This document shows positions 31,189-34,133 of a stretch of DNA of 34,133 nt, one piece after another (within the stretch, counting starts at the first letter, position 1; every line of letters starts with the position of its first letter). The stretch comes from an uncultured Candidatus Saccharibacteria bacterium (GTDB lineage Bacteria; Patescibacteriota; Minisyncoccia; Sungbacterales; SURF-37). The stretch spans positions 1 through 34,133 of the forward strand of contig CAYIQX010000003.1 in NCBI GenBank assembly GCA_964365675.1, read 5' to 3'. A model generated the notes under the pieces. It ran no database searches, was not told the origin of the DNA, and was given only the letters and a program-made list of their open reading frames with translations. Position numbers and translations under genes: made by a program.

Positions 31189-31222
31189 TCTCCCTTCAAG
31201 ATCGTGAATTATTGGTAGTATA

Positions 31223-31756
31223 TCACAGCTTACCAGCTTTTACTGGAAATGTGGGACTGCTTACACTGGCCAGTAAATTTTCAGAATCTTTTAAAAGCTT
31301 GGGGATGGGCATACTCAGCAAGTCTTGTGTATGAATCAAATTATCAGGCCTATCCTTATTAGAATGAGCAACAACTTTGTTGCGGGATTTAGTTATCTGC
31401 TGAATAATTTCCCCGAACTCAGCAAGAATACCATCCAAACCCTCAGGGAATTGCTTGTAAAATTCCGGAAATGCGGTCTTTAAGAAAGTTCTAAAAGTGA
31501 TTAGCGACAAAGAATCTCCACTTTTATCAAATAAACCGGCGATCTTTAAGATCAGATAATCTTTAAAAACCCTATCGTGTTGACCGAGTTCGTTGATATT
31601 ATCAGTTTTACCAGTACGCCAGCACTCATTAAGTTCGTTGTTAGTTTTCTTCAGATACTCAAAAGCATTTTTGCAATTTCCTATACCATAAGAAATCGAT
31701 CCACAATATAAGTCGTATTTTTTCTTTTTTTCGTGTATATCCATAATTGATTCCAT
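31223..31756 (-). CDS. HEPN-domain protein (AbiU2-like)
   Basis: 177 aa, helical; LILKIAGLFDK...SL; RNKVVAH matches the HEPN R-x4-6-H motif; AT-rich. Confidence 0.7.
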   Translation of the reverse strand: MESIMDIHEKKKKYDLYCGSISYGIGNCKNAFEYLKKTNNELNECWRTGKTDNINELGQHDRVFKDYLILKIAGLFDKSGDSLSLITFRTFLKTAFPEFYKQFPEGLDGILAEFGEIIQQITKSRNKVVAHSNKDRPDNLIHTQDLLSMPIPKLLKDSENLLASVSSPTFPVKAGKL

Positions 31757-33138
31757 TAATCCTCGTCTATTTCTTCTTTTCTTTTAATCACGCCGCTGTG
31801 TAGTAACATCGGGATTAAAATACCGTCTTGATATAGCTTCACGGTTGCTCCCCTTGCGTACTCCATTAATTTATCATCAGTTTCCTTCTCCATTAGATCA
31901 GAAACTTCTTTAAGTTCTTTCGGGGTTTTTGGATTATCTTTATTCTTAAATAAGAACTGCCGGACTTTATCCTTGGGCAATACCATAATCACAAATGCCG
32001 CAGGTAGCCAATCTTCCGGCGTTTCTGGCAATGGAGGTCTGGTCAGAAATTTTATTCTGCATGAGGTATAGTCGTATCTACTCTGTTTACATTCCATAAT
32101 CTCGCACAGATCACCCATTGCAAGTACCAAATCACCGGGACTAAAAACTTCCTTGAAGCGCTGTAGAAGTTTAGGGGCATCAGATGTTCCATCGCGGGCC
32201 ATTCTTCGTATTTGATCATTTGGGTCATCAAAATTCATTAATCTATTCGCACGACTGATTATGTGTTGTCCGAGCAAAGATATAAAGGATATATTTCGCC
32301 TTATTGTGTTGAATTTTTGGCGCCGTTCCGTTATCGGGCTACCTGCGGGGGCATGAACAGAAGCGCTAAAGTCGCCAAAAAACTTATCGTACGAGAGACC
32401 CAAAACTATTTTCTCGTCATCCGTAGCGTGTGGGAGTGCTTCCATAAATCTTTTCCGCACCGATTCAAAAATTGGGGGACTTTTTCTACGGTCCCAATCC
32501 CTTCTCAAAAACCAAATATTGGAAACTTTAAGCGTTTTTAGATCGTCGTGTATGCGATCCGAATATGTTTTTATAGAACTATCTATGTTGCCGCTTCTAC
32601 TCTCGTAAAATGTGCCGAAGTCAGATTGCCGACCAAGAAAATGCTCTAAGTTTTCTGAGTTAAGAAAAATTCTGTACGCCTCACCTCTATCAAAGTTAAA
32701 AAGGTTTATGAGATTAATAAGTGTTTCTATGTGTTTTCTTAAAACGATATGTTGTGAGTCAATTATTCCCTCAATAATTATTCGCCCAAGAGTATCAATA
32801 CTATCCTTTTGTGGCACTTCTAAAATATGTTCTTCGTTTTCTAACAAAGTTAAACTGGCTTTCATAATCTGCCGCGCATAGCCGTAAAGAAGAAGTTTTT
32901 TAGAATCCTCCGGTCCTGTCCACGCATAACGCGCAGAAAAGTAAAAATCGTTGTTTTTATAAAGTTTACCAAGTAAAACATTGGCTTGTTTTAACGGCTG
33001 AGAGACCCAAAAGTCTATTTCGGGATCAATAATAAGGCTTCTCTTTCTCCATTTTGAAATTCTCCCCTCTAATTTAAGAAGGAAATGATGCAATTTCTTC
33101 TTCCAGATAGGTATTTTTATTTCATCTGTTTTAGCCAT
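31756..33138 (-). CDS. 460-aa hypothetical protein with DUF5677/HEPN-like motifs and a C-terminal SH3/KOW-like segment
   Basis: LGRIIIEGII; Y-x6-S-x-x-VH (YDKFFGDFSASVHA); FSPGDLVLAMGDLCEI; TAATG overlap with the downstream gene. Confidence 0.6.
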   Translation of the reverse strand: MAKTDEIKIPIWKKKLHHFLLKLEGRISKWRKRSLIIDPEIDFWVSQPLKQANVLLGKLYKNNDFYFSARYAWTGPEDSKKLLLYGYARQIMKASLTLLENEEHILEVPQKDSIDTLGRIIIEGIIDSQHIVLRKHIETLINLINLFNFDRGEAYRIFLNSENLEHFLGRQSDFGTFYESRSGNIDSSIKTYSDRIHDDLKTLKVSNIWFLRRDWDRRKSPPIFESVRKRFMEALPHATDDEKIVLGLSYDKFFGDFSASVHAPAGSPITERRQKFNTIRRNISFISLLGQHIISRANRLMNFDDPNDQIRRMARDGTSDAPKLLQRFKEVFSPGDLVLAMGDLCEIMECKQSRYDYTSCRIKFLTRPPLPETPEDWLPAAFVIMVLPKDKVRQFLFKNKDNPKTPKELKEVSDLMEKETDDKLMEYARGATVKLYQDGILIPMLLHSGVIKRKEEIDED

Positions 33139-33158
33139 GTGGATAACCTACTTGTTAC

Positions 33159-33189
33159 ATTTTCGGTAAATTTTCGGTATACTGAAAAT
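33159..33189. promoter_or_regulatory. Candidate LexA operator in the divergent promoter region
   Basis: Direct repeat ATTTTCGGTA at 33159 and 33170 (TTCGG-N6-TTCGG). The second copy also forms the palindrome ATTTTCGGTA|TACTGAAAAT with one mismatch. Confidence 0.55.
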
Positions 33190-33223
33190 ATATCAAGTTG
33201 ATACGCAGAGCGCAATACCAACT

Positions 33224-34133
33224 ATGCACAAAACATTAACCAAGAGACAAAAAGAGGTTCTCGACTTCATCAAGAAGTTCGTAGACAAGAAAGGATATCC
33301 TCCCACCCTCGGAGAGGTCGGAAAGAAACTTAAAGTCTCCGCCGTTTCTACGGTCCATCAACACATAACTACTCTTATCGAGAAAGGCTTCTTACAAAAG
33401 TCGGGTAGTTATACGAGGGACATTGGCATTTCCAAATCAAGTCCGATGGTTAAAATCTCCCTGCTGGGAACTATAGCCGCGGGCCAACCCATAGAGGCTA
33501 TACAGGAAAAGGAAACAATCGCTGTTCCTCAAAATACATTACCCCGATCTGGAGAGTTTTATGCATTGCGTGTAGTTGGCGACAGTATGGTTGACGAAAA
33601 CATTAACGATGGCGATATCGTCTTGGTAAAGCAACAAGCAACAGCCGATAACGGACAAAAAGTGGTAGCTTTGATTGACAACCACGAAGCAACACTAAAG
33701 AAATTCTATAAAGAACGGGGGCATGTCCGTTTACAGCCGGCAAATAGAAATATGGAACCTCTCATTTTCCGTAATGGTCGAGATGTTTCGATACAGGGAA
33801 TAGTGCTCGATGTAATTCGAGAGACAGGCGCAGAAATCCCTGAAATTGCTATCGGAAAAACAACACAGGATGCAGTGGTGCTAAAACCGTATTATGAAAA
33901 ACCAAGATTTAAGTTATATCAAGCAAACTGCTTGAATGTACTGGCCAAGCTTCCAGAAAATTCCGTTGACATGATCTTCGCTGATCCACCCTACAATCTC
34001 TCTAATGGAGGATTTACGGTTCATGCCGGCCGAATGGTGAGCGTCAACAAAGGAGCTTGGGATAAAAGCAGGGGGTTCAAAGATGACTATGATTTTCATT
34101 ACAAATGGCTGGAGGCGTGTCGAAGGGTTTTGA
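33224..34133 (+). CDS. lexA: LexA repressor fused to a DpnA-like beta-class DNA adenine methyltransferase (truncated by the window edge)
   Basis: One open frame of 303 codons: LTKRQKEVLDFI..GYPPTLGEV..STVHQH (wHTH), IAAGQP (Ala-Gly site), GDSM (Ser), ATLKKF (Lys), LQPAN, a linker, then NSVDMIFADPPYNLSNGG..VSVNKGAWDK..WLEACRRVL. Confidence 0.93.
   Translation, partial: MHKTLTKRQKEVLDFIKKFVDKKGYPPTLGEVGKKLKVSAVSTVHQHITTLIEKGFLQKSGSYTRDIGISKSSPMVKISLLGTIAAGQPIEAIQEKETIAVPQNTLPRSGEFYALRVVGDSMVDENINDGDIVLVKQQATADNGQKVVALIDNHEATLKKFYKERGHVRLQPANRNMEPLIFRNGRDVSIQGIVLDVIRETGAEIPEIAIGKTTQDAVVLKPYYEKPRFKLYQANCLNVLAKLPENSVDMIFADPPYNLSNGGFTVHAGRMVSVNKGAWDKSRGFKDDYDFHYKWLEACRRVL

Follow-up and report, generated by a model that had tools for sequence, protein, structure and literature searches.

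A LexA repressor joined in frame to a DNA methyltransferase: a putative self-repressed, damage-responsive modification enzyme in Candidate Phyla Radiation bacteria

Introduction

To our knowledge, no general explanation has been given of how a host survives its own type II restriction-modification (R-M) systems once its DNA has been damaged or repaired. C proteins, or simple autorepression by the methylase as in the self-repressing enzymes M.SsoII, M.Ecl18kI and M.EcoRII, are the generally assumed safeguards of type II systems; type I systems possess restriction alleviation. Elsewhere in bacterial defence, the regulators CapH/CapP, CapW and BrxR respond to DNA damage, as does the restriction alleviation of type I systems. 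The review PMC3874152 describes, as a second mode of R-M regulation, methylases whose N-terminal helix-turn-helix (HTH) domain represses their own gene, and it also states that unbalanced restriction-modification induces the SOS response. Here, we describe a gene in which a whole LexA repressor is joined in frame to a DNA methyltransferase, found at the end of a 34,133-nucleotide contig (CAYIQX010000003.1) of an uncultured Candidatus Saccharibacteria bacterium (GTDB lineage Patescibacteriota; Minisyncoccia; Sungbacterales; SURF-37). The whole contig, C3 of the assembly GCA_964365675.1 (647,634 bases in 84 contigs, 96.6% complete), constitutes the window of this study. Judged from sequence comparisons, the fusion is probably (we would say at about 0.6) an autorepressed, SOS-derepressible modification methylase of a horizontally mobile type II R-M cassette.

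The closest described designs share some of its parts. Like the self-repressing methylases, as portrayed in PMC3874152, the fusion combines an N-terminal DNA-binding domain with an operator over its own promoter, an arrangement by which a methylase would limit its own synthesis. It differs from them in carrying a whole LexA of about 200 amino acids (aa) with a self-cleaving S24 domain and in having a LexA-type direct-repeat operator, so that repression should be reversible by DNA damage; moreover, its N-terminal module is swapped among many unrelated methylases. The N-termini of the fusion and of M.SsoII have no sequence relation, and the likeness is thus one of mode and not of family membership. 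C proteins of type II R-M systems, as set out in PMC3874152, are similar in that the cassette has a small-domain transcription factor of its own that times or limits its expression. They are unlike the fusion in acting on the nuclease gene, as activators or repressors, and in responding to their own concentration and not to DNA damage.

To the SOS repressor LexA itself (TIGR00498; structures 3k2z from Thermotoga maritima and 1jhh and 7b5g from Escherichia coli), the fusion is related by a full-length match, by the Ala-Gly, Ser and Lys residues and by an operator at its own promoter. It departs from the SOS repressor in its C-terminal methyltransferase, its location in a foreign island, its membership of a clade that moves with restriction systems and its single perfect operator. 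Among Alphaproteobacteria, the LexA motif reported in PMC8565304 is the direct repeat GTTC-N7-GTTC, and the operator described below is likewise a direct repeat with an 11-bp period. Finally, CapH/CapP, CapW, BrxR and type I restriction alleviation resemble the fusion in the idea that DNA damage tunes defence or self-protection. They are, however, other proteins and mechanisms, none of which fuses the sensor to a methylase.

The fusion gene and its domains

A single open frame of 303 codons in the ORF (open reading frame) listing extends from an ATG at 33224 to 34132 on the forward strand, without a stop before the window ends. The gene is open at its 3' side because the contig ends there and not because of any feature of the frame; judged by complete relatives, the window would hold the 5' two-thirds of a protein of roughly 488 aa. 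The initial annotation, made from the letters alone, had described a complete, cleavable LexA joined in frame to a DPPY-first methyltransferase, and both parts of this description hold. Residues 3-59 (33230..33400; this and the following features are on the forward strand) match the winged-helix DNA-binding domain of LexA (LexA_DNA_bind, PF01726, E 3.8e-17), with STVHQH as the recognition helix, and residues 80-194 (33461..33805) match the C-terminal Peptidase_S24 domain (PF00717, E 7.6e-30). Over aa 3-200, the protein reaches 191.9 bits with the NCBIfam equivalog model for lexA, TIGR00498, against a cut-off of 110.95. In an alignment that took in E. coli and T. maritima LexA chains, the window's IAAGQP, GDSM and TLKK stand opposite VAAGEP, GMSM and TVKR of the E. 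coli chains. The alignment places Ala86-Gly87 (33479..33484) at the autocleavage bond, Ser121 of GDSM (33584..33586) at the catalytic serine and Lys159 of TLKK (33698..33700) at the catalytic lysine, positions which we take to be the cleavage site and catalytic dyad of E. coli LexA. By every sequence criterion tested, the N-terminal part is a true LexA.

The LexA part is followed by a linker of about 20 residues (about aa 201-220; 33824..33883), at the start of which, after the residues ...DVIRE, related fusions diverge from one another and exchange their methylase modules. Beyond it lies the N-terminal part of a beta-class N6/N4 DNA methyltransferase (33965..34132). The N6_N4_Mtase family (PF01555) matches aa 248-303, a stretch of 56 residues that covers profile positions 1-43 of 221 at 27.6 bits (cut-off 26.7), and the catalytic motif IV, DPPY (aa 254-257; 33983..33994), lies near the N-terminus of the methyltransferase domain. 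The PADLOC model MTase_II PDLC03371 also matches this fragment (E 8.3e-25). As the contig ends first, the window copy is without the S-adenosylmethionine-binding half of the methylase and without a nuclease gene. An attempt to extend the contig within the assembly as far as the F-x-G-x-G motif of the methyltransferase did not succeed: no contig of the assembly overlaps the last 15-127 bases of the window, PF01555 matches the genome once only, and the remainder of the methyltransferase is not found elsewhere in the assembly.

Contigs assembled independently from public reads argue that the junction is genuine. In one sequencing run (X1), a 774-nt Logan contig spans 33269-34042, and in another (X2) a 1294-nt Logan contig spans 32621-33914, each with 0 differences and 0 gaps and hence no stop codon or frameshift between the LexA and methyltransferase parts. 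The runs are from different studies, and one of these may have supplied the source sample of the window. In runs X3 and X4, positions 33848-33951 are without contig cover, which is evidence of nothing. The closest complete relative, L090, is a protein of 488 aa with 79% overall identity to the window protein; it has a linker of equal length and is 96.6% identical over the 89 aa of linker and methylase fragment (aa 215-303). That the fusion should nevertheless be an artefact, namely a chimeric assembly, a frameshift or a single deletion event merging two neighbouring genes, could be argued from the position of the frame at a contig end and from the higher-depth contigs of other organisms that overlap the region. 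Given the two spanning contigs, the continuation of L090 to 488 aa over the same linker and the full-length fusions in 102 of 160 related loci, we regard such an artefact as barely credible.

A further contig of run X1, at a depth of 35.7 as against about 10, matches the methylase fragment (34013-34133) with 4 differences and continues past the window end. A more abundant organism in that sample carries a close relative of the methylase, and this probably broke the assembly at the end of the window.

A widespread design in Candidate Phyla Radiation bacteria

The initial annotation had guessed that such fusions might already occur in Patescibacteria, and an architecture search, the related loci and the genomes of the phylum all bear them. 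A search for longer proteins returned 671 matches of 532-2000 aa; in every one of the 120 listed, PF01726 and PF00717 are accompanied by a DNA methylase family, which is PF01555 in 116, PF02086 in 2 and PF02384 in 2. Further, 160 related loci were compared, 80 from genomes and 80 from metagenomes. Fused LexA frames of 454-628 aa (median 489) occur in 102 of them; 7 loci have shorter frames cut by a contig end, and the other 51 hold ordinary LexAs. The 80 genome loci comprise 27 complete fused frames and 2 that are contig-cut. Across the phylum, the LexA DNA-binding domain was found in 304 of 401 sampled genomes (a tally that includes the unpublished genome G154), and 24 fused frames in 23 of the 401, where a frame was counted as fused if it had at least 447 aa or was cut by a contig end as in the window's genome (G000), and where a row of G282 with a TAG inside the match was left out. 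In seven of these 23 fusion-bearing genomes, an ordinary LexA of about 205-250 aa is listed besides the fusion. Overall, LexA-methylase fusions are widespread among bacteria of the Candidate Phyla Radiation (CPR).

The cleavage residues are conserved throughout this family. A86, G87, S121 and K159 are invariant in all 27 fusions from the database, and all four are likewise kept in the 102 fused loci, for which A86, G87 and S121 lie partly within the retrieval patterns and K159 does not. Public records name such proteins either "transcriptional repressor LexA" or "BstYI methyltransferase". In the literature, we found no paper describing LexA-methyltransferase fusions, and the study of the Patescibacteria SOS network by Sanchez-Osuna, Barbe and Erill (2017, Environ Microbiol) may mention them.

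Operator and promoter

Upstream of the fusion gene, a promoter-like site (33154..33183, +) consists of GTTACA, an 18-nt spacer and TATACT. As a consensus match it is weak alone, with one site found against a shuffle mean of 0.8. Between the GTTACA -35 and the TATACT -10 boxes lie two copies of TTTTCGGTA in direct repeat, which form the two half-sites of a putative operator (33160..33168 and 33171..33179, +); the second, offset from the first by 11 bp, extends into the -10 box. This promoter carries the only perfect repeat of 11-bp period in the 647-kb genome. Eight other sites have 3 mismatches, as against 1-3 such sites in shuffled sequences. A strict script found a like repeat, with half-sites of the TTCGG or TTCTA type, upstream of 21 of 30 fused genes. 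An inverted-repeat operator, ATTTTCGGTATACTGAAAAT (9 of 10 pairs), was considered for the window and rejected, as only the direct repeat recurs in relatives.

Supportive of an operator function, the half-site co-varies with the recognition helix. For 139 non-redundant LexA loci, half-sites were compared with the residue x in the H-x-H of the recognition helix. Glutamine at this position, which is Gln46 in the window protein, goes with TTCGG in 22 loci and TTCGC in 1, and glutamate with TTCGG in 13. Phenylalanine is accompanied by TTCTA in 33 loci and TTCTT in 1, tyrosine by TTCTA in 3 and TTCGA in 1, and lysine by TTCGC in 23. The combinations of glutamine or glutamate with TTCTA, or of phenylalanine or tyrosine with TTCGG, are met in 0 cases among the 139 loci. 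Only 4 of 77 fused loci had a second such repeat within 6-7 kb on either side, so that the control exerted by the LexA domain seems confined to its own transcription unit.

Two other sites deserve mention. The promoter of the recA operon (G000:C20, locus L085, about 1047-1070) contains the operator-like TTCGGTAAGCGACGGTAGAAT, the CGGTA cores of which are 10 bp apart and not 11. A DnaA-box-like 9-mer, TTATCCACA, lies at 33138..33146 on the reverse strand and touches the ATG of the divergent ORF. With at most 1 mismatch and in either orientation, it is found in the 170 nt that precede the gene for 24 of 30 fused LexAs, as against 6 of 51 unfused ones. Its candidacy as a cassette-specific site was dropped, for the motif recurs between genes throughout G000, with 19 exact copies, most of them intergenic, where about 3 are expected from base composition.

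A mobile LexA lineage with exchangeable methylases

In a maximum-likelihood tree of 81 LexA domains (quick search, with Shimodaira-Hasegawa-like approximate likelihood ratio, SH-aLRT, support only), all 30 fused LexAs and 3 unfused ones form one clade with 99% support. The other 48 fall outside it, including the ordinary LexAs of WWE3, Daviesbacteria, Saccharimonadia and Acidobacteriota, and the fused clade itself mixes distant CPR lineages. Two of its unfused members, in L022 (5847-6725, -) and L027 (7607-8374, +), adjoin the methyl-dependent nucleases Mrr and DpnI, respectively, and the unfused LexA of L113 (2829-3800, -), about 72% identical to the LexA part of the window, adjoins a PLD/NgoFVII-type nuclease. 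The association of these LexAs thus extends to restriction enzymes, methyl-dependent and otherwise, without a fused methylase. On this phylogenetic evidence, the fused clade is a restriction-associated, mobile LexA lineage and not a housekeeping one.

The methylase halves fall into at least eight subtypes, among them a gamma-class enzyme, and modules have been exchanged even between close relatives. The LexA part of the window is 85% identical to the LexA of L005, a fusion with a methylase of another subtype, and only 73% identical to that of L090, despite the 96.6% identity of the methylase. In all four sequencing runs, there are other contigs that agree with the window over the last ~40 bases of the LexA part and depart from it at 33819-33822, just after ...DVIRE; in one of these, a linker resembling that of L005 and P0002 follows. 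A module of ~130 aa forms a separate ORF after the fusion gene in L092 (7461-7850, +) and is fused C-terminally in P0001, L086 and L095, giving proteins of 606-613 aa; in these four, the module had no family match.

Methylase type and target

CcrM and the beta-class N6-adenine methyltransferases of solved structure (6pbd; the DpnA-named 5hek and 5hfj; M.MboIIA, 1g60; M.RsrI, 1eg2) share the DPPY-first order of motifs with the fusion. When the relative P0001 was compared with solved structures, CcrM 6pbd was the best match (E 5.6e-57, aa 221-472), and a chain named DpnA gave E 1.8e-29. The label "DpnA-like", under which the methylase was first noted, is only approximate: it is apt for a beta-class N6/N4 methyltransferase, and the nearest solved relative is CcrM. 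The best NCBIfam model, also CcrM, is matched far below its cut-off of 830 bits (L090 scores 249.8), and the relatives are paired with nucleases, unlike an orphan cell-cycle methylase. Motif I (DPFTGSSTTG) is present in at least 90% of the 13 complete close relatives, in an alignment of 14 rows.

A GATC target is possible for the methylase subtype of the window, as a nuclease of the MutH/Sau3AI family lies downstream in 4 loci of that subtype. In the genome, the observed-to-expected ratios of GATC (0.87) and GANTC (0.89) are unremarkable among 4-mer palindromes, and target avoidance was dropped as an uninformative clue to specificity.

Restriction partners and neighbours in relatives

Across the 27 fused genome loci, the gene directly downstream is mostly convergent and abutting, and in 16 of them it is a nuclease recognised by Pfam. 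These are TaqI (L009, L011, L015), MvaI/BcnI (L023, L028, L029, L035), BsaWI followed by MvaI/BcnI (L017), Bsp6I (L020, L021, L025, L031), NgoFVII (L019), AlwI (L024) and HNH or Endonuclease VII (L008, L013). From this gene content, the fusion is in relatives the methylase of complete type II R-M cassettes, and we infer that a nuclease partner of the window copy lies beyond the contig end. A C-protein-like HTH_3 ORF of 72-77 aa stands ahead of the nuclease ORF in 10 of the 27 loci, so the two switches co-exist. The proposal that the LexA part replaces a C-protein switch consequently fails as a general statement, and it may apply to the methylase subtype of the window (L086-L097 and L108), in whose loci no C-protein-like HTH_3 ORF was seen.

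In this subtype the genes downstream run in the same direction as the fusion gene, and in many cases they overlap its stop codon. They comprise the co-directional MutH/Sau3AI-family nuclease of the 4 loci mentioned above; a protein of 173-180 aa, weakly matching PD-(D/E)XK, in 4 loci; an ORF of 142-155 aa in 3; and a DUF6996/DUF6997 protein in 2. The upstream neighbours of the fusions are defence genes, namely CBASS, AbiEii, AbiU2 and the TOTE primase-helicase, together with serine recombinases. The flanks of L009, L026, L096, L092, L024 and L025 hold CBASS (SMODS with Cap15 or patatin), the TOTE primase-helicase, a pPIWI-associated nuclease and serine recombinases, and such neighbours place the fusions in defence islands beside mobility genes.

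Local setting of the window copy

The guanine-plus-cytosine (GC) content of the window is about 58% over 1001-31000 and falls to about 40% from roughly 31200 to the window end; in the genome as a whole it is 56.9%, with only 24 one-kb windows below 45%. Both contig ends are in fact low in GC, since 1-1000 and 31200-34133 lie at about 0.40-0.42, as against 0.58 inside. The left edge of the island that contains the fusion gene is formed by a 177-aa HEPN AbiU2-like ORF (31223..31756, -; 29.3 bits against a cut-off of 26.8). Next to it, a 460-aa ORF divergent from the fusion gene (31756..33138, -) has a weak DUF5677 match below the cut-off (E 0.006). No homology was found between this ORF and the similarly placed 468-aa ORF of L005. 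PADLOC gave no match for either of these two ORFs, and no tRNA was found at the island edge.

The fusion is the only LexA of its genome: PF01726 has one match, and PF00717 has one above the cut-off and a second (20.7 bits) below it. The genome also has recA. Among 23 sampled genomes of the same class, 15 are without any LexA. Taken together with the low GC of the island, this suggests that the LexA arrived together with the defence cassette.

Proposed mechanism and alternative readings

The initial annotation had proposed self-repression with damage-triggered de-repression, and a LexA-type operator over the gene's own -10 box makes this the best reading of the locus. A dimer of the LexA domain would bind the direct repeat TTTTCGGTA-N2-TTTTCGGTA between the -35 and -10 boxes and cover the latter, which would hold the methylase, and any co-directional nuclease downstream, at a low and self-limited level. 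RecA on single-stranded DNA, arising perhaps from self-restriction of an under-methylated chromosome, from repair synthesis or from incoming DNA, would stimulate cleavage at Ala86-Gly87. The DNA-binding domain would then fall off and the promoter open, and the freed S24-methylase fragment would still contain a whole methylase. The net effect would be more modification, or more of the whole operon, while the chromosome is being cut or rebuilt. DNA binding, RecA-dependent cleavage and the direction of the regulatory effect are the steps that we infer from the sequence.

Several observations weigh against this scheme or limit it. In the subtype of the window, a co-directional nuclease means that de-repression would raise both enzymes, which weakens the idea of self-protection, and damage-induced defence would fit this subtype equally well. 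The window copy could itself be a remnant or an orphan, and the genome avoids neither GATC nor GANTC, hence there is no trace of a long-resident cognate nuclease. As for the operator, 33 of the 139 loci have no clear repeat by script, and the counts of helix and half-site ignore the relatedness of the loci, which makes them supportive and not a statistical proof.

More tentatively, and with the odds somewhat against it, a portable unit of promoter, operator and LexA may recombine, at a hot spot after ...DVIRE, with many unrelated R-M cassettes of CPR bacteria. The methylase would thereby become both sensor and responder of chromosome damage: upon formation of RecA filaments, caused by its own nuclease or by repair synthesis, the fusion would cut itself off the operator and the methylase would flood the cell.

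That a methylase has instead been added to the host's ordinary SOS master repressor, which would mainly regulate recA and repair genes genome-wide, is suggested by the absence of another LexA from the genome, the presence of recA and the operator-like TTCGGTAAGCGACGGTAGAAT at the recA operon promoter. We consider it unlikely, however. The island around the gene has 40% GC as against 57% in the genome, a perfect operator exists only at its own promoter (the eight sites with 3 mismatches compare with 1-3 in shuffles), and the CGGTA cores of the recA site are spaced by 10 and not 11. Moreover, the fused LexAs mix distant lineages in one clade apart from the ordinary LexAs of Patescibacteria, 7 of the 23 fusion-bearing genomes list an ordinary LexA as well, and 15 of 23 sampled genomes of its class lack a LexA altogether. 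Cleavage could also act mainly as a post-translational switch, with the intact fusion held at the operator or sterically inactive, the RecA-triggered cut freeing an active methylase, and transcription being secondary. The cleavage site does lie between the DNA-binding domain and the rest, leaving the methylase with the S24 dimerisation domain, and it is a translational fusion, not a lexA-M operon, that recurs with at least eight methylase types, suggesting that the physical link itself has been selected. Yet a cognate nuclease needs constant methylation, which an inactive pro-enzyme would not supply, and the unfused LexAs beside Mrr, DpnI and, in L113, the PLD/NgoFVII-type nuclease fit an untethered transcriptional role; we therefore give the switch only a small chance of being the principal mode. 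Still less probable is that the LexA part now serves only for autorepression and dimerisation, deaf to RecA or answering another signal such as a phage protein. A mobile element must work in hosts with differing RecA proteins, and the S24 repressors that such elements carry are able to take their cue from other signals. Against this reading stand the score of the LexA part above the equivalog cut-off and the retention of Ala-Gly, Ser and Lys in 27 of 27 and 102 of 102 fusions, with the Lys outside the retrieval patterns.

Implications

A self-repressed, damage-responsive methylase that carries a whole SOS sensor would directly link DNA-damage signalling to the self-protection of the genome. 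The more than 100 natural variants, with their swapped methylases and matched operator and helix specificities, would make a ready set of orthogonal, damage-inducible repressor/operator pairs. Further, each of the names given to these proteins in public records hides the other half of the protein, which could mislead reconstructions of SOS regulons in CPR genomes. If the portable module is real, it would constitute a type II counterpart of restriction alleviation, a brake on autoimmunity built into the cassette itself. Such a brake, if true, may explain how CPR cells, with their tiny genomes, tolerate many mobile R-M systems.

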